From contig NZ_CP040089.1 in NCBI RefSeq assembly GCF_009617975.1, forward strand, positions 1 to 32,000: DNA of 32,000 nt, read 5' to 3'. The notes under the pieces were generated by a model. The model was not told the origin of the DNA. It searched no databases and saw only the letters and a list, made by a program, of their open reading frames with translations. The DNA is from Candidatus Nanohalobium constans. GTDB lineage: Archaea > Nanohalarchaeota > Nanosalinia > Nanosalinales > Nanosalinaceae. Below, one piece after another: positions 1,392-21,952 of the stretch (its first letter is position 1; each line of letters opens with the position of its first letter). Position numbers and translations under genes: made by a program.

Positions 1392-3077
1392 ATGAATGAA
1401 GAAGCAGTTAAACAGCTAACGAAGCAAGGTTGCATGGTTGAGAAGGATGCAGCTGAAAGTATATCTAAAGAAGATGTCGAGTTGATCGAACAGCTTGATG
1501 TTACTCCTATGTTTGTTTCTCGCAAGATGGTGGAGAACTTAAGAGAAAAAATGGAGACCAGTGTTTCAACTGGAAATAACGGTGTTAAAACAGTTCAGAA
1601 ACAAAAAATGGCTGTGAAACAAGGGGAGGGCACAAGTACAACAGAGACAGAACCTGAAGAAATACAGGAACATGAAGAAACTGTCTCACAAGAAAAAGAT
1701 GCTGAAGAATCTCCAAATACACAAACATCTTCTGAAGAAACAACTGAACCTGCTCCAGAAACCTCCGAAGAAATGAGTAAGGATCTGGAAGAAGAGTTTG
1801 AAACCAAGTCCTCATACTTCGACAAGAACAAGACGGTAGAAATCAAGGACACAGGTTCTAGGGATGAAAAAGATACTAAAGTCGAGATCATGGATGAGAA
1901 ACAGATTACTCAGGAGGAAAAAGATGTACCTGAGTTCCTAGGATACTACAATGATCGCTACGACAAGATGAAGAAGCTGCTGACTCGCAGACAGGAGATG
2001 AAGTCAGCTACAACCATCAACCGGTTAGAGGGAAGAAGTGAGGGTGAGGAAGCCACCACTATCGGATTCGTCAACGACAAGTACTCGACTAACTCTGGCA
2101 AGTATATTGTTGAGCTCGAGGATAAGACCGGGACTTTCAAGGCGCTCGTGGATGAAAGGGAGGGCGACAGATTGGTTCCAGATGAGGTGATTGGTGTCTC
2201 AGGTAGCATGGGTGGCGACATAATCTATGCCAACTCTGTGATACGGCCAGACCTCCCGATACCACAGGGCACCAACTCAACACAAGACAAAGTACAGGCA
2301 GCATACATCTCAGATCTCCACATGGGAAGCCAGGACACACTCCACAAAAGGCTTGACCGATTCGGAGACTGGCTGTCAACCGAAGAAGCCAAACATATCG
2401 GCTATCTTGTGATGCCCGGAGACCTAGTAGAAGGCGTAGGAGTATATCCAGGACAGAAGGAAGAACTAGAGGTAGAAGATATCTACAAACAGTACCAACT
2501 TTTCGAGGAATGGTTCCAGAAGATTCCAGAAGATATACAGGTAATTGTCGGACCAGGAAACCACGAAATAACCCGGTTAGCGGAGCCACAGCCACGACTG
2601 CCGAAAAAAGTCTTCCCGGACATCGATGACTACAACAACTTCCACAGAGTCCAAAATCCGCAGATGGTCCGACTTCACGCGATCAGAAGTAAGGGTATCA
2701 AGAACCTGATGTACCACGGTTACAGCTTCGACGACCATGTCGACAAAATCCAAGACCTGAGAGAAAAAGCATACGAAGAACCTCACCATGTCATGATAGA
2801 CCTACTCAAGAGAAGACATCTCGCGCCTACCTACGGCGATAACATGCTGAGCCCTGAGATGGAAGACCAGTTGGTAATCGAGGAGCAGCCGGATGTTATG
2901 GTTTCAGGCCACTTCCACAGCCACGCCAACACCACATACAAAGGAGTCAATGTCATCAACTCCTCCACATTCCAGGCACAGACCGACTTCCAGAAAAGAA
3001 TGGGCCACGAACCAGACCCCGGAAAAGTAACAATAGTGGACTACAAAACCCGAAAAACACAGGTAAAGCAGTTCTAA
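1392..3077 (+). CDS. polD1: DNA polymerase D (Pol II) small subunit DP1
   Basis: Calcineurin-like phosphoesterase motifs DLHMGS, GNHE and GHFH lie in the C-terminal half, preceded by an OB-like segment. The N-terminal domain is followed by a long E/T/S-rich acidic linker. The gene sits directly upstream of DP2. Confidence 0.93.
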   Translation: MNEEAVKQLTKQGCMVEKDAAESISKEDVELIEQLDVTPMFVSRKMVENLREKMETSVSTGNNGVKTVQKQKMAVKQGEGTSTTETEPEEIQEHEETVSQEKDAEESPNTQTSSEETTEPAPETSEEMSKDLEEEFETKSSYFDKNKTVEIKDTGSRDEKDTKVEIMDEKQITQEEKDVPEFLGYYNDRYDKMKKLLTRRQEMKSATTINRLEGRSEGEEATTIGFVNDKYSTNSGKYIVELEDKTGTFKALVDEREGDRLVPDEVIGVSGSMGGDIIYANSVIRPDLPIPQGTNSTQDKVQAAYISDLHMGSQDTLHKRLDRFGDWLSTEEAKHIGYLVMPGDLVEGVGVYPGQKEELEVEDIYKQYQLFEEWFQKIPEDIQVIVGPGNHEITRLAEPQPRLPKKVFPDIDDYNNFHRVQNPQMVRLHAIRSKGIKNLMYHGYSFDDHVDKIQDLREKAYEEPHHVMIDLLKRRHLAPTYGDNMLSPEMEDQLVIEEQPDVMVSGHFHSHANTTYKGVNVINSSTFQAQTDFQKRMGHEPDPGKVTIVDYKTRKTQVKQF

Positions 3078-3139: not shown

Positions 3140-6100
3140 ATGAAAGTAGAAAAATACTTTGAAAGAATCTCAGACGAGACAGATAAAGCCTATGAACTAG
3201 CTGAGAAAGCAAGAGAACAATCCAAGGATCCAGAGAGAAAGATTGATATCCCGGTTGCTACTGACCTCCCTGAGAAGGCTTCCAGCCTGGTTATAGCAGC
3301 TATGTTCGAAGAACTGGAGGATCAAGGTGTTCCTGAGAGAATCAGAGAACTTGAAGATGAGTACGGCAAGAACGATGAGAGAGTTGCCTTCCAGATCGCC
3401 CGTGAGATAGCTGAAGGAGATTTCTACGAGTTCGAAGATGTTGAGAGAGCCTGTGATGCAGGCATCAGGGTAGGAGCATCCTACATGACTGGAGGGATAA
3501 CTACAGCTCCTCTAGAAGGAATTGCAGATGTCAAGGTCAGAACCAACGATGATGGCTCTGAATACTTGGCAATGTATTATGCAGGACCTATCCGCTCGGC
3601 AGGAGGGACAGCCTCCGCAATGTCAGTGCTTCTAGCAGACTATGTAAGGATAGGAGTAGGTCTGGACAGGTTCAAGCCTTCTGACACAGTTGTCAAAAGA
3701 TATGCTACAGAGGTTGAGGATTACTACAACCGTGTCACAGCCAAACAATACAATCCTACTCGTGAGGAAACGAAGAAGATTGCGGAGAATGTCCCTGTAG
3801 AGGTCACAGGATCAGCTACGGAAGATTTAGATGTCTCAAACTATAAGGACCTCGACAGAGTAGAAACTAATGCTATCAGAGGCGGTATGTGCCTCGTCTA
3901 CCTTGATGGCCTGCCATTGAAGGCGTCAAAGATTGAGAAAAGAATCGAGAAATGGGGAGAAGACTTCGGATTAGAGCACTGGGACTGGGTTGAGGAATAC
4001 CTCAAACTACAGAAAGAAATACACAGCTCAGGAGACGATGACGACGATGAAGATGAGGAAAAAGAGAAAAAACCAGGTTACACTCCAAGCGACAAATACC
4101 TAGGATCTCTAACTGCTGGAAGGCCTATATTCGCCCATCCCGGAAAAAAAGGAGGTTTCCGACTGAGATACGGCCACTCAAGAACGAATGGATTAGCGGC
4201 TAACTCATTTCATCCTGCCACTATGGAGATTACAGAGCGTTTCATGGCCATAGGCACGCAGATGAAGATAGAGTATCCTGGAAAAGCAACGGTGGCAACG
4301 CCATGCGACAGCATTCATCCTCCTGTTGTCAGATTGGAAAACGGTGATGTGATCAAGGTAGAGACACGGGAAAAAGCCCGAGAACTAGAAAATGATATTG
4401 AAGAAATACTCTTCCTCGGCGACATGCTTGTAACTTATGGTGAATTCGTTGAAAACGGTAAAAAGCTGCTGCCATCGCCTTATGTAGAAGAATGGTGGGA
4501 AAAAGAACTGGAAAAAGAGCTTGAAGAACAGGATGTCAAGCTTGGCAAAGACTTCAGCGATAGAGAACCCACACCAAAAGAAGCATTCAAGATAAGCGAT
4601 GTACTTGGTATTCCGCTCCATCCAAGATGGCAATACCACTGGGACGAAACCAGTTCAGAAAAATTCCAGGCACTATATGAGGAAATCAATGATGGAGAGA
4701 TTCGAAGCCAGGAAGCAAAGAAATGTCTTGAGGACATACTAGTACAGCACAAGACCGGAGAAGACAAAATAAATGTTCCTGAAGACGACCTGAAAGTTCT
4801 GAAAAAACTTCTTGTAATGGAAGAAAGCCATACAGATAAGATTGAACAGCTAGAAAATGGAAATGAGATCCATAATTTTGTTCAGGAAATCTCAGGATAC
4901 GAGCTAAGAGATCAAGCACCTCATTATCTTGGTGCTAGGATGGGCCGACCGGAGAAAGCGGAGAGAAGAACTTTGAACGGAAAGCCTCAGCTGCTATTCC
5001 CTTGCGGAAAGCAGGAAGGCGGCAGGATGAGAAATCTTACAGCATCCTACAACTATGGAAGTGTCCAGGAAAATATTGTGGTTAACAAGGATCAGGAAAC
5101 AGGAGAGAAAACCTACTTTGCCTACAATCCTGATACAGGAAATCCTGCAGAACCTGTCTGGTACTGCACAGAATGTAGGGAGGAGTATGTGGAAGAGTCG
5201 GAGAGCTGCGATAGCTGCGGCAACGAAAGATTCCAGAGACACAAAAATGAGAATATAGACATCGAGAACCTGATGGACAACGCATTAGAGAACCTAGACA
5301 TGCCCAAGCCACCTGAACTACTGAAATCCTTCCGTGGAATGACCTCGGAACACAAACATGTAGAACCGATCGAAAAAGGCTTACTCAGAGAGAAACACGA
5401 CCTCTATGTTAACAAGGACGCAACAGTAAGATATGATGCATCAGACATCCCAATGACACACTTCAAACCAGAAGAAATCAGCGTCTCAGTCGAAAAACTC
5501 AACGAGATAGGCTATACTGAAGATCACAACGGAGAACCACTGGAAAGAAAAGACCAGGTAGTAGAGCTTAAGCCACAGGATATAATCATACCTGACAGCG
5601 ACAAAACACTCTCCGCAGCAGAATACATGATGAGAGTCTGCAACTTCACAGACGAACTACTAACAGAATTCTACGAAGTCGACCCATTCTACCAAGTAGA
5701 AGAAAAAGAAGACCTCGTAGGAGAACTAGTAATCGGACTAGCACCACACACCAGTGGAGGAACAGTAGGACGCATAATAGGCTTTACAGACGCCAAAGGA
5801 ATCTACGCACACCCATACTGGCACGCAGCGAAAAGAAGGAACGCGGATGGAGATGAGGACGCCATTCTGATGATGATGGATGGCTTACTGAATTTCTCAC
5901 GACAGTTCCTCCCGGACATGACAGGTGCAAGGACCATGGATGCGCCGTTAATTCTCTCTACTGTTTTGAATCCTGATGAGGTGGATGATGAGGCTTGGGC
6001 GGTTGAGACTGTTTCTGAGTATCCTTTGAGTTTTTATGAGGAGAGTTTGGAGTATAAGAAGCCGTGGAATTTGGATACTGATATTGAGATTGGTGAGGAT

Positions 6101-6625
6101 GTTGTTCATAGTGATGAGCCGTTTAAGCATGGTTTTACTCATGGTTGTACGGATGTTGAGGATGGTCCAAGCCAGTCTGAGTATGTTACATTGGATTCGA
6201 TGAGTGATAAGACTTCAGCACAGTTGGGTCTTGGTGAGAAGACCAAGGCTGCCGATGAGGATGCTACCGCCGAACTTCTCCTTCAGAAGCACTTCCTGCC
6301 AGATATCAGAGGTAACCTAAGAAGTTTCTCCAGCCAGGAGATGCGTTGTGTGGACTGTAACACCAAGTTCAGGCGTGTACCCTTGACAAATCAGACTATT
6401 GCGCCTTCTGGGAAGACTACTGCGCAGTGCCCTGAATGTGATGGAAAGGTTCTCCTGACAATTTCTTATGGTACGATTAAGAAGTATATGCAGCCGTCTA
6501 AGGATATAATTGATGAGTATGAGATCACTCCGTACCTCAGGCAGCAGGTAACAATGTTGAATGGTACGCTCCAGAGCTTGTTTGGGAAGGATGAAAGGCA
6601 GAGTGGTCTAGGACAGTTTACTTAG
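3140..6625 (+). CDS. polD2: DNA polymerase D (Pol II) large catalytic subunit DP2
   Basis: The product is 1161 aa. It carries the two-barrel catalytic acidic motif KRRNADGDEDA and zinc modules CTECREEYVEESESCDSCG and CVDCNTKF...CPECDG. No intein-like insertion is seen. Confidence 0.95.
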   Translation: MKVEKYFERISDETDKAYELAEKAREQSKDPERKIDIPVATDLPEKASSLVIAAMFEELEDQGVPERIRELEDEYGKNDERVAFQIAREIAEGDFYEFEDVERACDAGIRVGASYMTGGITTAPLEGIADVKVRTNDDGSEYLAMYYAGPIRSAGGTASAMSVLLADYVRIGVGLDRFKPSDTVVKRYATEVEDYYNRVTAKQYNPTREETKKIAENVPVEVTGSATEDLDVSNYKDLDRVETNAIRGGMCLVYLDGLPLKASKIEKRIEKWGEDFGLEHWDWVEEYLKLQKEIHSSGDDDDDEDEEKEKKPGYTPSDKYLGSLTAGRPIFAHPGKKGGFRLRYGHSRTNGLAANSFHPATMEITERFMAIGTQMKIEYPGKATVATPCDSIHPPVVRLENGDVIKVETREKARELENDIEEILFLGDMLVTYGEFVENGKKLLPSPYVEEWWEKELEKELEEQDVKLGKDFSDREPTPKEAFKISDVLGIPLHPRWQYHWDETSSEKFQALYEEINDGEIRSQEAKKCLEDILVQHKTGEDKINVPEDDLKVLKKLLVMEESHTDKIEQLENGNEIHNFVQEISGYELRDQAPHYLGARMGRPEKAERRTLNGKPQLLFPCGKQEGGRMRNLTASYNYGSVQENIVVNKDQETGEKTYFAYNPDTGNPAEPVWYCTECREEYVEESESCDSCGNERFQRHKNENIDIENLMDNALENLDMPKPPELLKSFRGMTSEHKHVEPIEKGLLREKHDLYVNKDATVRYDASDIPMTHFKPEEISVSVEKLNEIGYTEDHNGEPLERKDQVVELKPQDIIIPDSDKTLSAAEYMMRVCNFTDELLTEFYEVDPFYQVEEKEDLVGELVIGLAPHTSGGTVGRIIGFTDAKGIYAHPYWHAAKRRNADGDEDAILMMMDGLLNFSRQFLPDMTGARTMDAPLILSTVLNPDEVDDEAWAVETVSEYPLSFYEESLEYKKPWNLDTDIEIGEDVVHSDEPFKHGFTHGCTDVEDGPSQSEYVTLDSMSDKTSAQLGLGEKTKAADEDATAELLLQKHFLPDIRGNLRSFSSQEMRCVDCNTKFRRVPLTNQTIAPSGKTTAQCPECDGKVLLTISYGTIKKYMQPSKDIIDEYEITPYLRQQVTMLNGTLQSLFGKDERQSGLGQFT

Positions 6626-6684: not shown

Positions 6685-7215
6685 ATGACAAATGAAGTTG
6701 AGATTTCGGACGTGATGACTGAGGGCGTTATTGCCGTTGAACAAGATAAATCTGTTGTTGAGGCAGCTCAGCTCCTTGAAGAGGAAGAGATCAGGGGTTT
6801 GGTGGTTGTCGATAATGGTGAGGCTGTTGGGATTGTTGTTTGTCGTGATATTGTTTACCAGCTTGTATCGGAAGGGAAGGATCCTTCTGGTCATCAGGTG
6901 AAGGATATTATGAGCAGTGATCTTATTGTCGCTGAGGAGGATGAAGTCCTTAATGATGTGGCGATGGCGATGGTCAGGAACAATGTCTCCCGTGTACCGG
7001 TTGTCAGGGGCGACATGCTTGTCGGCATATTGACTCAGAGTGATATCCTAAGAGCTTGGCCTGGATTTGCCGAGGTTATCGGTGAGGAAAGGGAGATGGA
7101 TGCTCCTGCCACACCTAATCCGGAGTCACAGGATGGTTACTGTGAGAGCTGTGAGAACTACAGTGAGGAGCTGGAGAACATCAATGGTATGATGGTATGC
7201 CCTGAGTGCAAGTAA
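6685..7215 (+). CDS. CBS-domain pair protein with C-terminal zinc ribbon
   Basis: Two CBS-like repeats are present (VMTEGVIAVEQD...GLVVVDNGEAVGIV and IMSSDLIVAEED...VSRVPVVRGDMLVGILT). The C-terminus is CESCEN-x17-CPEC. Confidence 0.85.
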   Translation: MTNEVEISDVMTEGVIAVEQDKSVVEAAQLLEEEEIRGLVVVDNGEAVGIVVCRDIVYQLVSEGKDPSGHQVKDIMSSDLIVAEEDEVLNDVAMAMVRNNVSRVPVVRGDMLVGILTQSDILRAWPGFAEVIGEEREMDAPATPNPESQDGYCESCENYSEELENINGMMVCPECK

Positions 7216-7216
7216 A

Positions 7217-7261
7217 TTTTTTCTATTCTCTTCTTTGAGCTTTTTTCTCCTAGGGTTTTTT
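7217..7261 (+). terminator. Three T6 tracts, a candidate archaeal oligo-T terminator after the CBS gene
   Basis: T6 runs occur at 7217-7222, 7241-7246 and 7256-7261, immediately after the stop at 7215. Confidence 0.4.
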
Positions 7262-7296
7262 AGCCGAGCCAACCTAATTTTTCTCTGAGTCGTTGT

Positions 7297-7752
7297 ATGA
7301 ATATTGTTGAGGAAGTTGATCGGCGCCGCCAAACCTTGAAGATCCGGGATCCGAGCAGAGCCTATGCTGAGTTAAAAGATCTTCTTGAGAACAGAATTGC
7401 TCTTGACGGCGCACATGAGGAGAAATACTTTAACGACCTGGAGAAGAACCAGATCAGAGCCAGAATCAACTGTGAGGAAGGTTTTGATGCCCATACAGCG
7501 GCTAAGTATGAGATTTATCTTACTATTGATGAGAAGAAGTCGGAGCTGGATATGCAGGTTAAAGCAAAGCTCGTAACAGAATATCCTACTGAAAAGGCAT
7601 GGCAGGGCACTCTCTGGTACTATGCCTACCGCTCACTATTCGACAAGTTCTTGTACGGTAGCGTCCGGCATGGTTTTGAGCATGCTGCTGAGGAAAAGCT
7701 TGATACTATAATGGAGAGGGTGCGTGAAACCCTGGAGACTAGCAGCTTATGA
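7297..7752 (+). CDS. Hypothetical protein, paralog 1 of a three-member tandem family
   Basis: The 151-aa acidic ORF has no signal peptide. It shares DPSRAYAELKDLL with paralog 2 (DPARIYRGLKDLL) and has a long C-terminal helix FDKFLYGSVRHGFEHAAEEKLDTIMERVRE. Confidence 0.75.
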   Translation: MNIVEEVDRRRQTLKIRDPSRAYAELKDLLENRIALDGAHEEKYFNDLEKNQIRARINCEEGFDAHTAAKYEIYLTIDEKKSELDMQVKAKLVTEYPTEKAWQGTLWYYAYRSLFDKFLYGSVRHGFEHAAEEKLDTIMERVRETLETSSL

Positions 7753-7789
7753 ATTATAAGCTGGTTTGTAGAAAATCGAGGCGATTTTC
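7743..7789 (+). promoter_or_regulatory. Two consecutive perfect hairpins filling the paralog1-paralog2 spacer
   Basis: CAGCTTAT-gaatt-ATAAGCTG (7743-7763) spans the paralog 1 stop codon. GAAAATCG-agg-CGATTTTC (7771-7789) ends 2 nt before the paralog 2 ATG. Confidence 0.4.
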
Positions 7790-7791
7790 GA

Positions 7792-8415
7792 ATGGTTAAG
7801 TTCGATCATGATGCTTTCAGTAAGCAGGACCACTTTTTTGTCAAGGATGATCCTGCTAGGATCTACAGAGGTTTGAAGGATCTCCTGGTTGAAGAGTTTG
7901 ATATGGATAGGATTGAAGAAGGAAAGTCCGAGTTCTCTGTTTCTAGCCCGAAGGACAAGATCCGTATGCATGCGTTTAAGGAGAAGTCTCCGCACACTGT
8001 TATTCATTATAATCTGCAGTTTCGTGTTAAGAGTCCTAAGAATATTTACAAGATGGAGCATGGTCAGGATATTTTGAAGGCGCGTGTATCAACATATGCT
8101 GAAGTGGTGTCTGTCTATCCGGGCGGAGAGGATATCGCCTGGCTTCCTAAAGGTCTTAGAGAAGAACCAACTTCTAACTGGGGTAGCATAACCGGTTTGG
8201 AGGCGGAGCACAAGTCTCGTTTCCAGCGCTCAAAGCTGTATGAGATAATCGTAGGCTTGTGGCACAACAAGTTTTATTCTAAGGAGTTCCATATGTATGA
8301 AGAGGAGGCTAAAGAGACCTGTCTTCACATCCATGATTTGATGAGGGAGAAGTTCGGTGTCGAAAAATCTATCGGAAGAACAGGCGCAGGTCACTACACG
8401 CCGCCATGGCAGTGA
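7792..8415 (+). CDS. Hypothetical protein, paralog 2 of the tandem family
   Basis: This is a 207-aa ORF. Shared motifs with paralog 1 are DPARIYRGLKDLL, VVSVYPGG versus LVTEYP, and the C-terminal helix WHNKFYSKEFHMYEEEAKETCLHIHDLMREKF. Confidence 0.75.
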   Translation: MVKFDHDAFSKQDHFFVKDDPARIYRGLKDLLVEEFDMDRIEEGKSEFSVSSPKDKIRMHAFKEKSPHTVIHYNLQFRVKSPKNIYKMEHGQDILKARVSTYAEVVSVYPGGEDIAWLPKGLREEPTSNWGSITGLEAEHKSRFQRSKLYEIIVGLWHNKFYSKEFHMYEEEAKETCLHIHDLMREKFGVEKSIGRTGAGHYTPPWQ

Positions 8416-8423
8416 TTTAAACA

Positions 8424-9137
8424 ATGTCAGACTCAGGTAAAGATAATAATGTTGGCTGGTTTTCTCGAAATATTCTTCCCTGGCTTCATACTCCGGACAC
8501 CTACAAGGTTGAGGGCAAAAATTTTGATGAAGAGGAAGCCTTTGAGAAAGGAGACAATGTGTGGCATGACTTCCACCTGTTCCATGGTGACTGGGTTGAG
8601 GTCGTGAATAAGAAGGAGTGGTATGATTCCCCGCATGTTCCACAGATATACGCGAACCATAAGAAGATTTTGAAACAGAACATGCAGTTAAACCGACCGT
8701 TCGAAGAATGGTATGCTGAAAAGATCGATAACGGCGATTTTGAGTCCCATATGTATGTTAATGGTGATGGTTTGCCGAGCGGCAACGGAGATTACAGAAT
8801 TTACATAGAAATAGACAGTGTCGGCGCTCCTTCCGGAGAGAACGATGCCTGCACAGTCGAATACTTCGTAAAAGGAAAACTCAAGTATGATAAAATTCCG
8901 GGAGGCATCGACTTCCTACCGCGTTTCATCGCCTACCCCTTAAACCGGTTTTTCAAATGGGCATACCTGGAAATGCTGGCAGAAGAACAAATCGAATACG
9001 ACGGAGAATACGTCAGAGAAAAAGTAAACGAATACTTCCAATACCTCAGAAAATACCACGGCGAAGAACCCCTACAAACCAAAAGCCGCCAAGCAGTATT
9101 CAAACCAGCAGTCGAAGACGGAGTCTTCTTCCAATAA
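8424..9137 (+). CDS. Hypothetical protein, probable distant paralog 3 of the tandem family
   Basis: This is a 237-aa ORF. It has the weaker motifs PQIYANHKKILKQ, KIPGG, and the C-terminal helix FFKWAYLEMLAEEQIEYDGEYVREKVNEYFQYLRKY in the same order as paralogs 1 and 2. The gap to paralog 2 is 8 nt. Confidence 0.7.
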   Translation: MSDSGKDNNVGWFSRNILPWLHTPDTYKVEGKNFDEEEAFEKGDNVWHDFHLFHGDWVEVVNKKEWYDSPHVPQIYANHKKILKQNMQLNRPFEEWYAEKIDNGDFESHMYVNGDGLPSGNGDYRIYIEIDSVGAPSGENDACTVEYFVKGKLKYDKIPGGIDFLPRFIAYPLNRFFKWAYLEMLAEEQIEYDGEYVREKVNEYFQYLRKYHGEEPLQTKSRQAVFKPAVEDGVFFQ

Positions 9138-9168
9138 AGTTATAACCTAACAAAGGATATAACATATC

Positions 9169-10416
9169 ATGAAATTTAGAACTTCTAAGGGGCAGTCTGC
9201 GATTGAGTATCTCACAACCTATGGTTGGATGCTTCTTGTAGTCGCTATTGTTGGTGGTGCTGTTTTTACAACTGTTCAAGGTGGTTCTAGTTTGGATTCT
9301 AGTGGTTTTGATGCTGGTAGTGGTGTTGCCTTTGTTGAAGGTGGTTTAACCAGCAGCAATAGTTTTCAAATGGCTTTACGTAACCAAGAAGCTGAGGAAA
9401 TACAGGTGGAAAAAATAACTTTAACCAATGAAGAAGGAAACAAGGTTGTTGCCCGACCAGACAAAACCTTGCCAGTTGGAGAAGAAAAAACATTTAATAC
9501 AATCGGCTTAGCTGAAACCAGTGGACAAAACAGTGTTAATGTTGAGATTACTTATGATAGTGGCGGTTTGGATAATTTAGCGGTTAACGGCAGTATCACC
9601 GGCGCCTTCTCTCTGGATACTGAACAAGCAGAACCTGGGAATGGCGAATGGGTGTTTGTTGATGTTTCTGAGGTTAATCAGTCGACTGTTGATACTAGTG
9701 GTATGTCTGATTTCTATATTATGAAGTATGAGGCTTCTCGGAGTGATGCGACTGATAGCAGCGAAGGTACAAGCGATGTTCCGGCTTCTCAACAGGGCGT
9801 TGTCCCGTGGACTGAGATAAGTATGAACTATGATTCCAGTAGGGCAGATCCGGGTACAGATCCTGGGGCTTTGGAGGCCTGTGAAGCAGCAGGCTTCAAT
9901 TTGCCAAGTAATAGGCAGTGGCAGGCTGCTACGATGGCGGAGATTGGTAATGAATCTTCTCAGCCTTTAGGTAACACAAACAATAATGAGGACAGTAATG
10001 GGGATCAGGGAACGATAGATCCAACAAGTCATGACTGGAACAATGATGGAGAGAAAGACAGAACATTAACCGGTTCTGGTCCGGATACATGGGCTAATAC
10101 TATTGGAGTTCATGATTTGAATGGTAATGTGTGGGAGTGGACATCTACTGTGGTTGACCAATCACATCCGATGCATAAAGGCGGTAGTGAGGGTCATGTC
10201 TCGTCTTGGAACAATAATGGTTACCCTGAATCTCTTGGTAGCAGTAATTCCGATTTCGGGGGTGACTACTACTGGTCTTCGAGTAATGATACTCGTGCCG
10301 TTCGGCGCGGTGGTTACGCGCGCAGTGGTGCGGACGCCGGCGTGTTCTCCATGATCCTGCGCGACGATCCTTCGGGCTCGGGCAGGGGCACCGGGTTCCG
10401 GTGTTCTTTGAGTTGA
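9169..10416 (+). CDS. Class III signal peptide (archaeal type IV pilin-like) protein fused to an FGE/SUMF1-family domain
   Basis: The N-terminus MKFRTSKG/QSAIEYLTTYGWMLLVVAIVGGAVF has a prepilin-peptidase-type KG/Q site, a Glu at +5 and a hydrophobic helix. From about residue 165 there are FGE-sulfatase motifs FYIMKYE, VVPWTEIS, LPSNRQWQAA, HDLNGNVWEWTS, VRRGG and GFRC. Confidence 0.85.
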   Translation: MKFRTSKGQSAIEYLTTYGWMLLVVAIVGGAVFTTVQGGSSLDSSGFDAGSGVAFVEGGLTSSNSFQMALRNQEAEEIQVEKITLTNEEGNKVVARPDKTLPVGEEKTFNTIGLAETSGQNSVNVEITYDSGGLDNLAVNGSITGAFSLDTEQAEPGNGEWVFVDVSEVNQSTVDTSGMSDFYIMKYEASRSDATDSSEGTSDVPASQQGVVPWTEISMNYDSSRADPGTDPGALEACEAAGFNLPSNRQWQAATMAEIGNESSQPLGNTNNNEDSNGDQGTIDPTSHDWNNDGEKDRTLTGSGPDTWANTIGVHDLNGNVWEWTSTVVDQSHPMHKGGSEGHVSSWNNNGYPESLGSSNSDFGGDYYWSSSNDTRAVRRGGYARSGADAGVFSMILRDDPSGSGRGTGFRCSLS

Positions 10417-10442
10417 AAACTCTGTAGGGTTTTCATGTCGCA

Positions 10443-10533
10443 GAAATTCTCCCAGAGAATTTCGAGTCCTGATTGCTGAGTGCTCGAAAATCACTGAGTG
10501 ATTTTCTGTGAATGCACAAAATCTTCGATTTTG
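10443..10533. repeat. Three perfect palindromes with 3-nt centres and a shared half-site GAAA(A/T)TC
   Basis: The palindromes are GAAATTCTC-cca-GAGAATTTC (10443-10463), GAAAATCAC-tga-GTGATTTTC (10486-10506) and CAAAATC-ttc-GATTTTG (10517-10533). An alternative 7-bp pairing, TTTCGAG (10460-10466) with CTCGAAA (10483-10489), overlaps the first two. Confidence 0.6.
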
Positions 10534-10643
10534 GAATGCTGGGTTGCGAGGTGATCAGAATGGGTGAAGTGGATTTTACTGGTTTGCAGCCCTGTGAGAA
10601 TTGGGTGTCTGTGTTCTTCCAATAAAAGGCTTCGGACATAACT

Positions 10644-10667
10644 TGTTTTTACTTGGTATTTTTTTTT
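10644..10667 (+). terminator. T5 plus T9 tracts, a candidate oligo-T terminator
   Basis: TTTTT lies within 10646-10650 and a T9 run at 10659-10667, about 240 nt after the pilin-FGE stop codon. Confidence 0.35.
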
Positions 10668-10751
10668 GGCTGCCTATTGGTCAGCAGGCATGACGGGAAA
10701 GGGACCCTGGATGAGTGCGTCTGTGTTACCAGGCAGCCAAATCTTGTTTTT
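10668..10751 (+). ncRNA. Candidate small structured RNA of unknown class
   Basis: An 8-bp closing stem GGCTGCCT (10668-10675) / AGGCAGCC (10731-10738) is extended by GGT/ACC and CAG/CTG and an inner CAGG/CCTG helix. It is followed by a T5 run at 10747-10751 and preceded by the T9 run. I recognise no known family. Confidence 0.2.
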
Positions 10752-10804
10752 GGTTTTGTGGTGTGTTGTAGTAATATAAACTATTTGATTCTATTGTTGT
10801 TTAG

Positions 10805-11134
10805 ATGGTAAGAAGATTTTATGGTTTGGCGGTGGTATTTTTGTTGGCTGTGGGCTTTTCTGGGTCTGCGGTGTCTGTTAGTTTGGAGTCTTCTGGTTCT
10901 GAGGTTTTGGATAATTATTCTGAGGGCTCCAGCAGGGATGTTGAGCAGGAGATTAAGGAGAGGGTTAATATTTCGTCCGAGTCTGAGAGTGTTAATGTGA
11001 CGGAGGAGATTGAGGAACGGACTAATGAGGAGATTAGGAAGATTAAGCAGGAAGAGTCTCAGAAGGTTACAGGTAAGGCTACGGAGCAAAAGTCTGAAGG
11101 GTTTTTATCTATGATAATGAGTCTTTTTGGTTGA
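10805..11134 (+). CDS. Small secreted or membrane-associated acidic protein
   Basis: The N-terminus MVRRFYGLAVVFLLAVGFSGSAVS has an RR plus a hydrophobic core and may be a Tat or Sec signal. The body is E/S-rich and the C-terminus has a short hydrophobic tail. Confidence 0.6.
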   Translation: MVRRFYGLAVVFLLAVGFSGSAVSVSLESSGSEVLDNYSEGSSRDVEQEIKERVNISSESESVNVTEEIEERTNEEIRKIKQEESQKVTGKATEQKSEGFLSMIMSLFG

Positions 11135-11138
11135 ATAA

Positions 11139-11384
11139 ATGGCAGAGTTCTATGTAAAGGTTGAACCAGGTTCTGAGTCTTTCAGCGTTGAGCAAGCATA
11201 TATTACGAAGGTTTCTCTTACTGAGCCTGCTGAGAATGGTAGAGCAAACGCCGAACTAATAAGAGAACTTGAGAGTATTCTAGGTGAGAAACCAGCGATA
11301 ATTTCTGGACATCGTTCTAGGAGGAAGAAGTTGAAGGTTGATATTTCTGAAGAAAAAGTAGAGGAAAAATTAAGGAGTTTTTAG
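11139..11384 (+). CDS. DUF167 / YggU-family protein
   Basis: The 81-aa product has VKVEPGSE...GRANAELIRELESILG...ISGHRSRRK, matching the YggU pattern (V.V.P.a...GKAN..L...L...I..G..S..K). Confidence 0.75.
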   Translation: MAEFYVKVEPGSESFSVEQAYITKVSLTEPAENGRANAELIRELESILGEKPAIISGHRSRRKKLKVDISEEKVEEKLRSF

Positions 11385-13004: not shown

Positions 13005-13373
13005 ATGAAGTTAGATCATACGATGCTGAGGGTTTCTAACCCGGAAAAGGTAATTGAGTTCTATGAAGAGGCTTTTGGATTTGAACTTGTTAGGGAATCT
13101 GAGAATGATACTTTCACACTGTACTTCCTGCGGATTCCGGGTCAGGATGAGGTGCTGGAGCTTACTTACAATCATGGTGTGGACGACCGGTATGAGAAGG
13201 GTGAAGGTTTCGGTCATATCGCCATTAGAACGGATGAGGGTCAGTCTCTAAAAGATGCCTATCGGAAGGCTGTTGATGCTGGCGGTGAGGACTACCGTCC
13301 GCCGGGGGAATGTCCTGGTAACTATGGTTTTGTCAAGGATCCGGAAGGGTATGAGGTTGAGATCTTGGGTTAG
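13005..13373 (+). CDS. gloA: Glyoxalase I / VOC-family lactoylglutathione lyase
   Basis: Motifs HTMLRV, LELTYNHG, GFGHIAI and FVKDPEGYEVEIL are present. Confidence 0.88.
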   Translation: MKLDHTMLRVSNPEKVIEFYEEAFGFELVRESENDTFTLYFLRIPGQDEVLELTYNHGVDDRYEKGEGFGHIAIRTDEGQSLKDAYRKAVDAGGEDYRPPGECPGNYGFVKDPEGYEVEILG

Positions 13374-13954
13374 TCTAGATGGCAGTATTCGATTATTTCT
13401 TCTCCCCATTCTTCGTCGGCGTTGTTCAGCAGCTGGTTGATTTCATCGTTGTTTACGTTGACTGTTTTGGGTTCTTCGTGTTTTCTGTCTTTGTATCCTT
13501 GTAGTGTCCAGTTTTCTTGGGTCTGGTTGTATGTGGCGAGGTATTGCTGTCCTGTATGTGGATGTAGTTCTTGTGTATCCGCAAGGTTATGTTCTTCGAC
13601 TATGGTGTTGTCGATGCCGTATGCTAGTCTGCATTCTTCCTGAAATTCTTGTTCGATCTGTTCTTGTCGCTTTTCTATGCTGTACGGGAATTTTTTGGTT
13701 TTGATATCTAGTTCTTTTAGTATGCTGGCGTCTACTACTGTAGTCCCTATTCCTGAAGCGCCTACTGCTACTAGAATGTTTCTTCTCCTTTTATTTACTT
13801 CTCCTTCTTCATCTTCGATTCCTAGGTGTTTGTATGTGCTGTGTCTTAGCTTGTTTCCTGCTTCCTTGATTTGGTTGTAGCCAGGTATTTTGGTGTTTTC
13901 ACTTGTTTTTTGTTCTGCCTGTCCTGTGAATTCTTCAGGGTCAGGTTTTTTCAC
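13370..13954 (-). CDS. Hypothetical bitopic membrane protein
   Basis: The GTG start overlaps the upstream stop as GTGA. KRRRN followed by ILVAVGASGIGTTVV at residues 55-75 suggests an N-in transmembrane anchor with a C-terminal domain of about 120 aa outside. There is no in-frame alternative start before the RRR. Confidence 0.6.
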   Translation of the reverse strand: MKKPDPEEFTGQAEQKTSENTKIPGYNQIKEAGNKLRHSTYKHLGIEDEEGEVNKRRRNILVAVGASGIGTTVVDASILKELDIKTKKFPYSIEKRQEQIEQEFQEECRLAYGIDNTIVEEHNLADTQELHPHTGQQYLATYNQTQENWTLQGYKDRKHEEPKTVNVNNDEINQLLNNADEEWGEEIIEYCHLD

Positions 13955-15045
13955 TGTGGTGCCACTGGTTTTGGGTCTTTGTCTGTTTTTGAGGGGTTTT
14001 TGTCGTTGAAGTAGTGTTCGGGGGATGTTTCTTCCGGTGTAAGTCCTTTGTTGACTGTGTCTGTCAGTGCTTCTTCAACTGTTTCGTAGTTGTTCTCGTT
14101 TACTACGTTTGAAAGCCCTTCCAGTCCTTGTTTCATTGCTTCTGCTCTTTCTGATGCGTTTGAAAGGTTTTGGTCGTCGAGGTAAGGTGTTGCGGTGTTG
14201 ACTAGTTTTTCCATGCTTTCTTGGTAGGAGTCTAGTTTGTCTAGATACTGTTTGACGAGTTTGGACTGTGCGCTTATTGCTTCTCCGCTTGTTTTTATTG
14301 CTGAGGACCGGTCGATTAACGTGTTGTTGTGGGTTTTTTCAAGCAGGTTTTGCCTTGAGTCTGCGATGTTTCTAAGTATGTCGAATTCACCTTCATTTGC
14401 TCTTGCGGTTCCTCCTAGCTGTTCTGATAGTTTTCGGGCGTCATCGTATATTTGCTGTGTGTACTGTTCGACGGCGCCTGATAGTTCCTCTTTGAGTGCG
14501 TTTGTTTCTGCTTCTAGTTGTGAGTTCTTTGTGTCGAGTATGCTTTTGGCGTTTGCTGATTGGACTACTGACTGAGCGTATGTGTCTGCTTCTTCTGCAC
14601 CTAGAAGTTCTCCAACTGTCTCTGAGCCGAATTCCTTTAGTGCTGCTTCGCTTCTCTCTATCTCTGATTCACGGGCAGTGATCTTCTCCCCTAGTTCATT
14701 GACGTAGTCTAACAGGTTGTCTGCCCCTATATTTATGGTGTCGCTCTCTGAGAAAAGTCCTTTGGTCAGTCCTTCTACGCCTCTGTTAACCTGTACGCCG
14801 GAAACGTCAATCTCCTCATCCTCAAGCGAGTAAGATTCCTCGCCAGGCTCAAGCATTTTTTCGTAAGCCCTCTCAGCCTTCAGCTCATATTTTTCGTTGA
14901 TGTCCTCAAACTTCTGGTTAATCTCATTTTCCTGTTCGAAAATGCTGTCAACAGCAGAATCTACCTGCTCAAAGTCGTTGCTGGAGCCTATACCTAGTTT
15001 TTCTTTCGCTTTGCCAACCAGATTTTTCGCATAGCTTAACACCAT
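13951..15045 (-). CDS. Hypothetical acidic coiled-coil protein
   Basis: The 364-aa ORF has no TM segment or signal peptide and contains long heptad-like E/Q/L/A-rich segments. It is translationally coupled to the downstream membrane protein. Confidence 0.7.
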   Translation of the reverse strand: MVLSYAKNLVGKAKEKLGIGSSNDFEQVDSAVDSIFEQENEINQKFEDINEKYELKAERAYEKMLEPGEESYSLEDEEIDVSGVQVNRGVEGLTKGLFSESDTINIGADNLLDYVNELGEKITARESEIERSEAALKEFGSETVGELLGAEEADTYAQSVVQSANAKSILDTKNSQLEAETNALKEELSGAVEQYTQQIYDDARKLSEQLGGTARANEGEFDILRNIADSRQNLLEKTHNNTLIDRSSAIKTSGEAISAQSKLVKQYLDKLDSYQESMEKLVNTATPYLDDQNLSNASERAEAMKQGLEGLSNVVNENNYETVEEALTDTVNKGLTPEETSPEHYFNDKNPSKTDKDPKPVAPQ

Positions 15046-15477
15046 TCTAATTACCTAACTTCAGATTCCAACTCTGTATAAAAACCATTTATTACGTTTC
15101 TAAAGCTGTAAAGAACTGAATAAGTGTTCTCAAATGTAACAAATTTTCATGTTTACTTTAGGACTTGTTAATTAACTCATTTTTCATTTTAATCTTTTTC
15201 TATAGGATTTGATACTATATATTTGTCTTTTTTCTGGTTAACGTCTTGATTTCAATTTTTTAGCTTGTTCTAAGAACTTGTGTTCCTTAAAGTATATTTT
15301 AAACGAAAAATATGGGTTTATAATCTGTAGCCGGTTTTATGTGTATGCTGATTTGGACTAGGTTTGATTTACTGGTTTTTTGTGAAAATCTGAGCTACGG
15401 GAGCGATGATTCCCAAGGGTTTCCTGTTAATTTCCTAATTAAACAGGGTTTCAGAACTAAGGAGGTGAATTTTTGAT

Positions 15478-16332
15478 ATGAATAGACAAGTTTTAGCTTC
15501 ATTCATTGCTATCGGTCTTATTGCTTCAATTACCGGTGTCGGTACTGTAGCTGCTTCGAACACTAGCTGGGATGATAAGAAGGCTGGTGACTATGACAAG
15601 CAGATGATGCAGGACCGCATTGAGGATCTTCGTGAGAAGCGCGATTCATTGAAGCAGACTCTCCAGGAGAAGAAGTCTACATCTTCTGAGTACAAGGATA
15701 AGTACCAGAAGATCAGCAAAGACTTTGAGGAGATGAAGAAAGAGCACGAGACAGCAGTTGAAGACGCTACTGAGTACAAGGACTTGTACGAAAAGCAGAA
15801 GCAGAAGACTCATGAGTACAAGGACAAGTACCAGAAGCAGAGCGATCAAGTTGAAGAGTACCGTGATAAGTACTTGAAACAGAAGCAGAAGGCTCAGACC
15901 TACAAACAGAAGTCAGAGCAGTCTCTCAACCATCTTCAAGAAGGTGCTGTAGAGTATTCAGTTGACTACAAGAAGACCTACAAGGACCACAAGAAGACTT
16001 CAGAAAGCGATTCTGAGAAGAGCGCTAACTCAAGCTCTTACAAGGAGAAAGATCATCAGAGTAACTCATCTGCAGATTCCAGCAGCAAGAAAGGCTACGA
16101 ATCTGGAGAGAGCGACAACAGAAGCAGTAAGAAGGAGAAAACCGATTACAAGTCAGAATCATCCGAGTATGAGAAAGAGAAAGAGAAAGAATCTGACTAC
16201 GAAAAGGACTCTGAGAAGAGTTACGAAGAAGGGAAGCACGAGAAAGAGTCAGAAAGTTCCAACGAAACAGAGAAAGACAGCAAAGATGAAGAAAAAGAAG
16301 AAGACGATGAACACAAGAAAGGGAAGAAGTAA
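15478..16332 (+). CDS. Secreted Lys-rich repeat protein
   Basis: A strong SD GGAGGTGA at 15461-15468 lies 9 nt before the ATG. The signal peptide is MNRQVLASFIAIGLIASITGVGTVAAS. Six 14-aa repeats of the EYKDKYQK type are followed by a K/E/S/D-rich tail. Confidence 0.8.
   Translation: MNRQVLASFIAIGLIASITGVGTVAASNTSWDDKKAGDYDKQMMQDRIEDLREKRDSLKQTLQEKKSTSSEYKDKYQKISKDFEEMKKEHETAVEDATEYKDLYEKQKQKTHEYKDKYQKQSDQVEEYRDKYLKQKQKAQTYKQKSEQSLNHLQEGAVEYSVDYKKTYKDHKKTSESDSEKSANSSSYKEKDHQSNSSADSSSKKGYESGESDNRSSKKEKTDYKSESSEYEKEKEKESDYEKDSEKSYEEGKHEKESESSNETEKDSKDEEKEEDDEHKKGKK
15688..15939 (+). repeat. In-frame tandem repeat, 6 x 42 nt (14 aa)
   Basis: GAGTAC(A/C)(A/G)GGA-type repeat starts occur at 15688, 15772, 15814 and 15856. 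The peptides are EYKDKYQKISKDFE / EMKKEHETAVEDAT / EYKDLYEKQKQKTH / EYKDKYQKQSDQVE / EYRDKYLKQKQKAQ / TYKQKSEQSLNHLQ. Confidence 0.8.
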
Positions 16333-16377
16333 CTGAGCGATGCTCAGCTACATGAGGAAGGGTTATTTCCTTCCTCA
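16333..16377 (+). terminator. Two perfect hairpins just after the Lys-rich gene, possibly a 3-prime end or terminator element
   Basis: The hairpins are CTGAGC-gat-GCTCAG (16333-16347) and TGAGGAAGG-gttattt-CCTTCCTCA (16353-16377). Confidence 0.35.
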
Positions 16378-16404
16378 CATCTTCCAACTTAAAGAGGATT
16401 TAGC

Positions 16405-16923
16405 ATGATGGAAAGAATGGAAATAGCTACGACACTGCTCATAGTATTGGTTGCTACGCCGCTTGTAGTATTCATAGTTCCACAGCTTCTGGGCTTAGAA
16501 GCCTACGTAGTTACCTCTGGTTCGATGGAACCTCGGGTTCCTGAAGGAGCAATACTGTACAACCAGAATTCTGAAACCTCACAACTCGAGGTAGGTGATA
16601 TAGTCACTTACGTGCCTAACCCCAATCAGAGCGATGCTGACAGAATCACACATAGAATAATACAGGTGAATCAAACAGAGAACTCACGCCAGTTCAAAAC
16701 TCAGGGAGACGCCAATGTCGACCCCGATCCCGGATGGGTATCAGACTACCAGGTAATAGGACAAGAACTATTCACAATACCATACCTAGGCTACATGGTA
16801 AAATTCCTATCATCCCCTATCACACTAATACTGCTCCTAATCGTTCCCTCAGCTATAATGCTCAAAACTCACATAGAGAAACTACATGAAGAACTAACCC
16901 AATCCAAACAATCCTTCAACTAA
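16405..16923 (+). CDS. Signal peptidase I, archaeal/Sec11 type (S26B)
   Basis: It has an N-terminal TM segment, the Ser motif VVTSGSMEP, the His motif ITHRII, GDAN..DP, and a C-terminal TM segment. Confidence 0.88.
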   Translation: MMERMEIATTLLIVLVATPLVVFIVPQLLGLEAYVVTSGSMEPRVPEGAILYNQNSETSQLEVGDIVTYVPNPNQSDADRITHRIIQVNQTENSRQFKTQGDANVDPDPGWVSDYQVIGQELFTIPYLGYMVKFLSSPITLILLLIVPSAIMLKTHIEKLHEELTQSKQSFN

Positions 16924-19145: not shown

Positions 19146-20147
19146 ATGAGTGCAGAGGAAGTCGTAGAGAAAATTGTCGACGAAACAGAGATGGACGAAG
19201 ACGAAGTACAGGAAAAACTGGAAGACAAGATGGAAGAATTCTCCGGACTAGTCAGCGAAGAAGGAGCATCACACCTAGTCGCAAAAGAACACGGCGTACA
19301 GATAGCAGAAGAGCAGAACGAAGACCTAAAAATAGATAATATAGTGCCGGACATGCGGAAAGTCCATGTCAAATCCAAAGTACTCAACATTTCCGATGTA
19401 AACACGTTTGAACGAGACGATGACGAGGAAGATGGAAGAGTTCAGAACATGGTGCTCGGTGATGAGACAGGTACGATCCGGGTAACACTCTGGGATGAAC
19501 AGACCGAGATTGCGGAAAAAATCGATGAAGGAAACGGAATCGAAATCGCAGGAGCATACACGGTAGAGGACAACCAAGGAGAAGCCGAACTCCGGCTTGG
19601 CGATGATGTACAGGTCAAGATGCTGGACGATGATGAAGTACCAGAGGTAGATGATTCAAGCTCAATGTCCACAAAGGAAGTATCCATCAAAGAAGTCAAC
19701 CAGGAAGGCAACTCGTACAGGGTTCGCGGCATGTTGATGAAGGTCTACACATCCAACCCGTTCTACAGAGTACACCCCGAAACAGGAGACACAGTCAGGG
19801 AGAATGATGACGGAGACTATGTCACCGATGACGGCGAGGAAGTCGAGGATCCGGAAGGAAGACTAGCGGTATCAGGAGTCATCGACGATGGAACAGAAAC
19901 CATCCGAACAGTATTCTTCGGAGACCAAGCACGAGAAGTACTAGAAGTCGACGAAGAAACAGAAAAAGAAATGGACACAGACACAGTAGAAGAAGCAGCT
20001 GTAGAAGCACAGGGCAAAGAACTTGTAATCGAAGGAAGAACACGATTCAACGACTACTTTGACCGACTGGAAATTCTATGCAACAGCCTGGAAGAAGTTG
20101 AAACCAAGGAAGAGATCGAGCGTATGCTCGAAGTCATGGAAGCATAA
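19146..20147 (+). CDS. rpa: RPA-like single-stranded DNA-binding protein (two OB folds)
   Basis: The N-terminal helical segment is ...LVSEEGASHLVAKEHGV. OB fold 1 is VHVKSKVLNISDVNTFER...LGDETGTIRVTLWDEQ. OB fold 2 is YRVRGMLMKVY...VIDDGTETIRTVFFGDQA. Confidence 0.85.
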   Translation: MSAEEVVEKIVDETEMDEDEVQEKLEDKMEEFSGLVSEEGASHLVAKEHGVQIAEEQNEDLKIDNIVPDMRKVHVKSKVLNISDVNTFERDDDEEDGRVQNMVLGDETGTIRVTLWDEQTEIAEKIDEGNGIEIAGAYTVEDNQGEAELRLGDDVQVKMLDDDEVPEVDDSSSMSTKEVSIKEVNQEGNSYRVRGMLMKVYTSNPFYRVHPETGDTVRENDDGDYVTDDGEEVEDPEGRLAVSGVIDDGTETIRTVFFGDQAREVLEVDEETEKEMDTDTVEEAAVEAQGKELVIEGRTRFNDYFDRLEILCNSLEEVETKEEIERMLEVMEA

Positions 20148-20167
20148 AAACGAGGTAATAGAATACT

Positions 20168-21558: not shown

Positions 21559-21636
21559 TTAGTAACAACAGAATATAAATGTTGTGGTTGAGAAATTGTA
21601 GATATCAATATGCCATAAGTAGTAGAAAAGTAGAAA

Positions 21637-21897: not shown

Positions 21898-21952
21898 TGT
21901 TTTAGGGCACCTTTACAAGTGGTTTTTAGGGAGGGAGAGTTAAAAACTTTCC

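Follow-up and report, generated by a model that had tools for sequence, protein, structure and literature searches.

We report here on the first 32,000 nucleotides of the Candidatus Nanohalobium constans LC1Nh chromosome (NZ_CP040089.1, positions 1 to 32,000; the whole of this stretch is hereafter the window), an origin-proximal region that lies beside replication genes. The focus is on three consecutive genes whose products, called P1, P2 and P3, carry only the name 'hypothetical protein' in the databases, and on the gene that follows them, P4, whose product combines a pilin module with an FGE/SUMF1-like domain. We find that P1, P2 and P3 are true ancient paralogs of one previously undescribed protein family, kept together in fixed order directly downstream of a gene for a CBS-pair protein, and that P4 is a lineage-specific insertion outside this conserved unit. 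We consider it probable that P1-P3 make up a core hetero-oligomeric module unrelated to the pilin gene. The genes concerned are the following.

6685-7215, + strand: CBS-pair protein with a C-terminal CxxC...CxxC zinc ribbon, LC1Nh_0004 (QGA79913); PF00571, E 6e-26
7297-7752, + strand: P1, LC1Nh_0005 (QGA79914), 151 aa; open reading frame (ORF), sequence identity
7792-8415, + strand: P2, LC1Nh_0006 (QGA79915), 207 aa; ORF, sequence identity
8424-9137, + strand: P3, LC1Nh_0007 (QGA79916), 237 aa; ORF, sequence identity
9169-10416, + strand: P4, LC1Nh_0008 (QGA79917), 415 aa, pilin module plus FGE/SUMF1-like domain; ORF, PF03781

An earlier note on this DNA had described four plus-strand ORFs of these sizes, separated by 39 nt (P1-P2), 8 nt (P2-P3) and 31 nt (P3-P4), and had read the first three as divergent paralogs without a signal peptide that could not be assigned to a named family; on all these points it is borne out. 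The ordered motifs that it listed (the PQIYANHKKIL set, then TEYP/VYPGG/KIPGG) are present and line up in a joint alignment. The paralog pairs are only 13-25% identical and pairwise BLASTP is weak, with E 3e-5 for P1-P2, E 0.13 for P1-P3 and no significant match for P2-P3. Profile comparisons are clearer: hhalign aligns P1 with P2 over 132 columns (probability 81%, E 1.2e-5), and two merged families with the third over 129-159 columns at probabilities of 89-95% and E 2e-6 to 7e-8, the merged P1+P2 profile matching P3 over 157 columns (89%, E 2.4e-6). Furthermore, against the 353 six-frame ORFs of the window, the hidden Markov model (HMM) of the P1 family finds P2 at E 3.6e-4 and P3 at E 7e-4, the next match being at E 1.1; P1 is found by the P2 HMM at E 1.3e-5 and by the P3 HMM at E 1.6e-3. 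A bridging protein from another locus, L048_g3, matches the P3, P2 and P1 HMMs at 4.5e-18, 6.5e-15 and 2.4e-11, respectively, and in the AlphaFold2 models the secondary-structure elements of P1 follow one another just as those of P3 do. Since profile comparisons, HMM cross-matches, bridging sequences and the shared P1/P3 model topology all agree, the paralogy is confirmed.

P1 is the minimal core form of the family. P2 carries an insertion of ~40 aa before the C-terminal helix and ends in a conserved tail, ...GVEKxIxRTGxxHYxPPW, while P3 has an N-terminal extension of ~55 aa and the conserved tail RKYHGEEPxQTKxRQ...GxFFQ. Common to the C-terminal tails of P2 and P3 is the pattern G-x-E-x(3-4)-[KR]-[ST]-x(3)-[YF]-x-P; the aromatic ends of both proteins are not conserved beyond nanohaloarchaea. 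No signal peptide is apparent in the N-termini of P1-P3, judged by reading the sequence with no predictor run. The mean column identity of the P2 family is 68%, and between N. constans and other genera P1-P3 are 44-64% identical, as compared with 63% for PolD DP1 and 54-58% for the DUF167 protein encoded nearby, so that the conservation of P1-P3 is comparable to that of these two proteins. The isoelectric points (pI) of P1, P2 and P3 are 5.3, 6.9 and 5.0, and P2 has a net charge of -1. For comparison, Orc1, DP1, DP2, the CBS protein, P4 and RPA of the window range from pI 4.05 to 5.05, and the DUF167 protein is at 5.9; for a salt-in halophile, a soluble protein with the near-neutral charge of P2 is unusual. 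The median pI of the N. constans proteome is 4.32 (PMC7443923).

Searches for a known identity came back blank. P1-P3 match neither Pfam nor NCBIfam, and SRPBCC families in particular are missing even at E up to 1; PHROGs and PADLOC were blank for P1-P3 and for four of their distant relatives. When 62 members of the P3 family and 65 of the P2 family (E up to 5) as well as ten distant relatives were scanned against Pfam, no consistent match and no SRPBCC family appeared, and three different alignments used as profiles against PDB sequences brought up no significant match. A literature search for the locus tags and accessions found no paper mentioning them, and a comparative-genomics paper on Nanohaloarchaeota offered nothing that bears on them.

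Homologs number 185 for P1 (52-81% identical among the 120 listed), 174 for P2 (201-212 aa, 56-77% identical) and 138 for P3, and the homologs listed for the three are 46-81% identical to the N. constans proteins. Those with a named organism are from Nanohaloarchaea, save for one short contig labelled Aenigmatarchaeota in the P1 search. An exhaustive HMMER search with a merged profile gave only 78 matches at E<1e-3 among 1.84 billion cluster representatives, and the named distant matches are either Candidatus Aenigmarchaeota or the deep-branching Nanohaloarchaeota QJJ-9. Among the matches are non-halophilic relatives of 160-200 aa that share the motifs GPNPxxxY and TEYPQDTxWQxSxxYExxRxxWHxxFY as well as the tail IGRSxRExYxP. 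P1 is closest to the Aenigmarchaeota relatives, which its HMM matches at E 1e-10 to 3e-20, and the median pI of the Aenigmarchaeota homologs is 8.9. On present evidence, the family is small and confined to two related DPANN groups, the Nanohaloarchaeota and an Aenigmarchaeota-type group.

The conservation of gene order was assessed in 6 loci reached via P2 homologs, 34 loci of GTDB species representatives, and 40 metagenomic loci reached via the CBS protein (loci are numbered with the letter L). The order CBS-P1-P2-P3 is present in 39 of the 40 loci of the first two sets, the exception being L023, whose contig begins inside P1, and in all 27 metagenomic loci that hold the full triplet. Across the roughly 65 nanohaloarchaeal loci that are long enough, P1, P2 and P3 are never apart and their order is fixed, and the CBS gene is directly upstream of P1 in every nanohaloarchaeal locus reaching that far. 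The usual flanks are PolD DP2 before the CBS gene and, after P3, DUF167 followed by a Toprim protein of 373-392 aa. Within the window, the genes around the unit are:

42-1349, + strand: Orc1/Cdc6; Pfam match
1392-3077, + strand: PolD DP1; Pfam match
3140-6625, + strand: PolD DP2, 1161 aa in N. constans; Pfam match
10417-10804, no strand: non-coding stretch of 388 nt after P4; sequence
10805-11134, + strand: small secreted acidic protein, LC1Nh_0009 (QGA79918), 109 aa; signal-peptide-like N-terminus
11139-11384, + strand: DUF167/YggU-like protein; PF02594, E 2.8e-12

The upstream order Orc1-DP1-DP2 is also found in L003, L012, L020, L025, L040 and others, and DUF167 lies at most 350 nt from P3 in 22 of the 27 metagenomic loci and in most GTDB loci. 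Thus the CBS gene is the conserved upstream partner, and the Orc1-PolD...DUF167-Toprim neighbourhood is kept more loosely. Three additional genes stand between DP2 and the CBS gene in L005.

In the more distant relatives the number of P genes varies, with one, two or three copies per locus. QJJ-9 (L047) has the order DP1-DP2-[P1][P2][P3]-DUF167-Toprim. A P1/P2-like/P3 triplet stands in L048 beside a CBS/Zn-ribbon gene, DP1, an Orc1-like gene, RadA and RPA. A single P1-like gene follows the CBS/Zn-ribbon ortholog by 10 nt in L043/L044, with Orc1, PolB and Hjc near (one copy, L043), and in five further metagenomic loci a P-like frame either opens 4 nt behind the CBS/Zn-ribbon gene or overlaps with it. 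Two tandem P1-like paralogs occur in L041, L045, L049 and L050, the last two being named Aenigmarchaeota metagenome-assembled genomes; the two-copy clusters span 2935-8009 in L041, 2163-7471 in L049, 2228-7090 in L050 and 5727-7448 in L045. These clusters have neighbours of their own, none of which has a homolog in the N. constans window: after the P pair in L045 and L049, a small protein that is disordered at the N-terminus and forms a coiled coil towards the C-terminus, two large opposite-strand proteins (566-648 aa) without a Pfam match in L041, L049 and L050, one of which shows in L041 a faint AP_endonuc_2 signal (xylose-isomerase-like TIM barrel), and, in L049 and L050, also a two-transmembrane protein of 56-57 aa.

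The CBS/Zn-ribbon orthologs stand beside P-family genes in L043/L044, L048, L099, L101, L105, L107, L111 and L121; the P-like gene starts about 4-10 nt past the CBS/Zn-ribbon ORF in L043/L099, L101, L105, L107 and L111, and overlaps it in L121. The link between CBS and the P family is recurrent, not universal. The CBS-pair protein with its C[ED]xCxNYS...CxEC zinc ribbon is itself a widespread archaeal family (L091-L130). Its distant orthologs usually precede a protein of 265-320 aa with four CBS domains, and outside the P lineages the gene is sometimes followed by a small Toprim-like protein, Rrp41 or seryl-tRNA synthetase.

The region upstream of P1 suggests that the triplet is a transcription unit of its own. 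Two elements were read there:

7256-7262, + strand: TATA-like box TTTTTTA, 34 nt upstream of the P1 ATG; conserved across loci
7275-7282, + strand: second TATA-like candidate TAATTTTT, upstream of P1

In 35 of 36 loci, a TTT[TA]TA hexamer precedes the estimated start of P1 by 22-39 nt (median 25), and the conserved form of the element between CBS and P1 is of the TTTTTTA[CT]C type (L001-L040). Its placement, which is typical of an archaeal TATA box, suggests a leaderless or short-leader mRNA, and TTTTTTA at 7256-7262 is the probable promoter of a P1-P2-P3 operon. By estimate, the median distance is 1 nt from P1 to P2 and -2 nt from P2 to P3, and many annotations show overlaps of 8 nt; such abutting or overlapping frames suggest translational coupling. 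A scan for sigma-70 promoters and intrinsic terminators, which is uninformative for archaea, gave counts not above those of shuffled controls. The earlier note had placed all four genes in one transcription unit bracketed by oligo-T tracts. The tracts are indeed present at 7217-7261 and 10646-10667, but the upstream one cannot be read as a terminator only, as it holds the TATA-like box, and a single unit for all four genes is unlikely as the main arrangement.

What P1-P3 might look like was approached with AlphaFold2 models of P1 and P3 as monomers, built from shallow, low-diversity alignments of 62 sequences; the effective number of sequences (Neff) in the 120-sequence family alignments is about 2-4. 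The P1 model (predicted local distance difference test, pLDDT, 75; predicted template modelling score, pTM, 0.65) has a strand at 2-15, a helix at 19-33, four strands over 38-95 and helices over 106-146. The P3 model (pLDDT 85, pTM 0.78) has a strand at 58-69, a helix at 72-86 and four strands over 93-155, followed in its C-terminal part by a helix at 167-212 and a strand at 218-223. The C-terminal helix of the models is long, about 40-46 residues, and rich in aromatic residues. As modelled, we treat the fold of P1 and P3 as one compact beta-alpha-beta4-alpha domain with the element order of a helix-grip or TBP-like fold.

The best and only consistent structural neighbour of both models is the Bet v1/SRPBCC helix-grip. 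In Foldseek searches of the PDB, those of the top 50 matches that have a name are, for either model, Bet v1-like/SRPBCC proteins (PR-10, PYR/PYL, Ups1/PRELI, START, CoxG and aromatase/cyclase), with probabilities up to 0.98-1.0, next to a few unnamed proteins. The scores for these monomer models from shallow alignments are marginal, with E about 4e-4 to 8e-3, template modelling (TM) scores of 0.15-0.38 and root-mean-square deviations (rmsd) of 7-24 Å. The likeness lies in the strand and helix at the N-terminus, in the run of long antiparallel strands, and in the C-terminal helix, which in both is long and has an aromatic/hydrophobic face. Assigned with DSSP, though, the core of the models has five strands, with one helix of 15 residues following strand 1, and the SRPBCC layout of seven strands and two helices is not found in them; the C-terminal helix of the P proteins is also much longer, no sequence profile matches, and the genes form a paralog triplet. 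Because of the marginal scores and of this mismatch in strand and helix number, we do not call the P family a demonstrated member of SRPBCC.

A TBP repeat is built as S1-H1-S2-S3-S4-S5-H2. The P1 and P3 core shares this order, and its genes have replication genes as neighbours; as with TBP, a larger sheet could arise from units that are duplicated or paralogous. In sequence the P proteins do not resemble TBP, and no TBP stands among the top PDB matches. Against the viral structures of BFVD, Foldseek gave weak, uninformative matches only, among them the sole match of TBP type, a viral putative TBP (E 0.047, TM 0.20). Other identities considered for P1-P3, namely GINS, a PCNA-like clamp, RPA, prefoldin, longin/roadblock, PC4/Whirly, cystatin-like proteins and proteasome activators with HbYX tails, had no supporting structure in the top 50 Foldseek matches.

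We propose that the P1-P3 genes are a vertically inherited core operon of nanohaloarchaea, which would be read from its own TATA-like promoter directly downstream of the CBS gene, and that the three products most likely assemble into one cytoplasmic hetero-oligomer. This assembly would have evolved from a homo-oligomer, since one, two and three copies exist in different lineages. A precedent, as an analogy only, is the Sulfolobus PCNA1-2-3 heterotrimer, an archaeal complex that evolved from a homo-oligomer through gene duplication. The P family resembles it in having 1-3 tandem paralogs in fixed order and tight linkage, and differs from it in its fold. Candidates for the interfaces are the long amphipathic C-terminal helices and, in P2 and P3, the additional strand of the tail, and the CBS/Zn-ribbon protein would be a plausible regulatory partner that senses an adenosyl ligand. 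The hetero-oligomer probably has a housekeeping role. As to its activity, our preferred guess is the binding of a macromolecular or polyanionic partner, nucleic acid or nucleoprotein, because the pI is less acidic and replication/recombination genes are neighbours in three lineages; binding of a hydrophobic ligand or lipid would be the main alternative.

Several points weigh against this proposal. The case for a hetero-oligomer from tight linkage and copy-number variation is indirect, and the less acidic pI of the P proteins is suggestive only as regards polyanion binding. The structure models cover P1 and P3 and inherit the shallowness of their alignments, and the similarity found by Foldseek is weak even for the confident P3 model, which leaves the fold assignment uncertain. 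Moreover, 34 of 40 distant CBS/Zn-ribbon orthologs have no detectable adjoining P gene, and the oligo-T tract between CBS and P1 could end CBS transcription, so that the CBS link may be a regulatory coincidence. Finally, the replication-gene neighbourhood is absent from the Aenigmarchaeota-type loci L041, L045, L049 and L050.

In a more specific form of the proposal, P1-P3, probably with the CBS protein, would be a new complex of Nanohaloarchaeota and Aenigmarchaeota, built on a variant of the helix-grip/TBP-like fold and devoted to an essential housekeeping task for which these reduced genomes show no recognisable canonical factor, such as origin/chromatin handling or host-lipid handling; we put this forward tentatively, as a possibility.

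The two activities named there also have stand-alone versions, both of which we find rather doubtful. In the first, the triplet would be a replication or DNA-associated factor, a TBP-like hetero-oligomer acting on DNA or on a replisome component at or near the origin, and this would account for its location between Orc1-PolD and DUF167-Toprim. The placement after Orc1/Cdc6-DP1-DP2, conserved in nanohaloarchaea, agrees with this, as do the replication and recombination genes by the single L043 gene and around the L048 triplet, where DP1, Orc1-like, RadA and RPA are found, the near-neutral P2 and basic Aenigmarchaeota homologs, and an element order equal to one TBP repeat. Yet no TBP, clamp, GINS or DNA-binding structure is among the top 50 Foldseek PDB matches, the four Aenigmarchaeota-type loci lack replication neighbours, and origin-proximal synteny may be mere inherited gene order.

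The second version, to which we give similarly little credence, makes P1-P3 Bet v1/START-like carriers of hydrophobic ligands or lipids, maybe of host-derived lipids in an organism unable to make its own. The named Foldseek matches of both models point this way, and the conserved C-terminal helix is very aromatic (WYYAYRSLFDKFLYG), as would suit a pocket-lining helix. Against it stand TM scores of 0.38 or less and high rmsd even for the model with pLDDT 85, the strand and helix numbers, and the lack of a profile match to any SRPBCC Pfam family; furthermore, conservation is unusually high for ligand carriers, and all three proteins are cytoplasmic in a single-membrane cell.

It is unlikely, in our view, that the paralogs act separately as monomers or homo-oligomers and are adjacent through tandem duplication alone. 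Their high divergence (13-25% identity) and individual extensions (the N-terminal arm of P3, the insertion of P2, the tails of P2 and P3) would fit such independence, but the genes are never apart in about 65 complete loci and their order is fixed, they abut or overlap in a way that suggests translational coupling, and all three are similarly strongly conserved. This returns us to the hetero-oligomeric module, and leaves P4 to be placed.

P4 had been described in the earlier note as a pilin-anchored, FGE-like protein, and the sequence agrees. Its N-terminus, MKFRTSKG/QSAIEYLTTYGWMLLVVAIVGGAVF, has the features of type IV pilin-like proteins, namely the KG/QSAIEYL motif, Glu at +5 and a hydrophobic helix, and reads as a class III signal peptide, a kind of motif that no other of the window's 353 six-frame ORFs has; pilin HMMs are unmatched, as no curated Pfam or NCBIfam pilin model hits P4. 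Residues 220-340 match PF03781 (FGE-sulfatase) with 37.8 bits, above the cut-off of 23.3, and the NCBI name is SUMF1/EgtB/PvdO family enzyme. FGE enzymes carry their catalytic Cys pair in a C-terminal RGGS..C....C region. Read by sequence, P4 has two Cys in all, within EACEAAGF and GFRCSLS, and its RGGYARSGADAGVF stretch is without Cys. As there is no Cys where FGE carries the catalytic pair, P4 is likelier to be a binding module than an enzyme, and probably has a non-catalytic, binding-type FGE fold as in GldK/PorK, to which it bears a weak resemblance, as it does to the uncharacterised PDB protein 5vf4. P4 is thus plausibly a surface protein in which a pilin-like N-terminus bears an FGE-fold domain, and it may matter for host contact.

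Transcription of P4 is probably independent, from the following element; read-through from P3 into P4 is possible.

9140-9145, + strand: TATA-like hexamer TTATAA, 23 nt upstream of the P4 ATG, within the 31-nt P3-P4 gap

The pilin genes in the same position in L027 and L018 likewise follow A/T-rich spacers of 105-160 nt with TATA-like elements. Of the 40 loci, L018 and L027 alone have a P4-like gene after P3; of the 27 metagenomic loci with enough downstream sequence, 3 have one. Taken together, a pilin module comes after P3 in about 4 to 6 of roughly 60 loci. What is common to P4 and to the genes of L018, L027, L072, L073 and L086 is aa 1-145 only (39-41% identity); towards the C-terminus they are different, and in this position the FGE domain is unique to N. 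constans. The gap between P3 and DUF167 is empty in most nanohaloarchaeal genomes, and because different genomes carry quite different secreted-protein genes there, we regard it as a variable slot for secreted or surface-protein genes, of which P4 is an occasional occupant. It is occupied at 9138-11138 of the window and in L005/L006, L008, L009, L017, L018, L027, L072, L073 and L086, other occupants including a 1676-aa S8 peptidase, a 1030-aa secreted protein and small acidic secreted ORFs. LC1Nh_0009, like P4 unrelated to the triplet, is another variable occupant; small secreted ORFs like it are present in the slot of L008, L009 and L017, with a weak match to the L009 ORF. The stretch at 10417-10804, which includes the oligo-T run at 10646-10667, has no convincing ORF and does not match the genes that L018 or L027 have behind the pilin module. 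The window as a whole, this stretch included, is without a match to Rfam or to tRNA models; the stretch may be what is left of a degraded gene, or else an RNA that is not annotated.

These observations bear on the main suggestion of the earlier note, that P1-P3 are chaperones, assembly factors or effectors of a surface appendage made of P4 or decorated by it, encoded with it in a four-gene operon. We hold this to be very improbable: all four genes do run the same way, nothing terminator-like stands in the 31 nt from P3 to P4, and the pilin module recurs in the same slot in L018/L086, L027 and L072/L073, but it is missing from the slot in about 90% of loci where the triplet is always there, the FGE domain occurs in the slot here only, P4 has its own TATA-like box, the Aenigmarchaeota P loci have no adjoining called pilin gene, the remaining slot occupants are unrelated secreted proteins, and Pfam found no pilus ATPase, platform protein or prepilin peptidase among the 27 window proteins scanned, which comprise most ORFs of at least 100 aa. 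The expected co-occurrence of the triplet with a class III signal peptide gene is not conserved across the neighbourhoods compared, an outcome named beforehand as telling against the idea, and a pilus-linked system is therefore unsupported.

Farther along the window, Pfam identifies a ZIP transporter, a NikR-like regulator, RPA, RadA, LigT, a MacB-type ABC transporter and peptidases. RPA, RadA and LigT lie at 19146-22486, ~10 kb downstream of the triplet. Because they closely flank the triplet in L048 (6064-10200), their position suggests a larger ancestral replication/recombination neighbourhood that was later spread apart by insertions. The stretch at 13370-16923 encodes two adjoining minus-strand proteins of 194 and 364 aa, acidic, coiled-coil-like and without a Pfam match; next to this pair are a highly charged, repetitive, Lys/Glu/Ser-rich secreted protein of 284 aa and, after it, an S26-type signal-peptidase-like protein at 16405-16923. 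Unlike its N. constans counterpart of 1161 aa, the PolD DP2 of L002 (485-5929) has 1814 aa and contains an intein, recognised by Intein_splicing and, faintly, by LAGLIDADG.

Our work describes a well-defined, phylum-wide protein family rather than a new kind of system, and it removes a pilus-associated system as a tempting but wrong lead. For contact with the host, the variable slot between P3 and DUF167 may matter more than the triplet. Nanohaloarchaea, like other DPANN, are obligate symbionts with very small genomes, in which about half of the genes have no assigned function. The triplet is present in every nanohaloarchaeon examined, always as the same tandem genes, behind a probable promoter of its own and beside replication genes, and is therefore very likely important for the basic cell biology of these organisms; structural and biochemical studies now have a defined target in the P1-P3 family.

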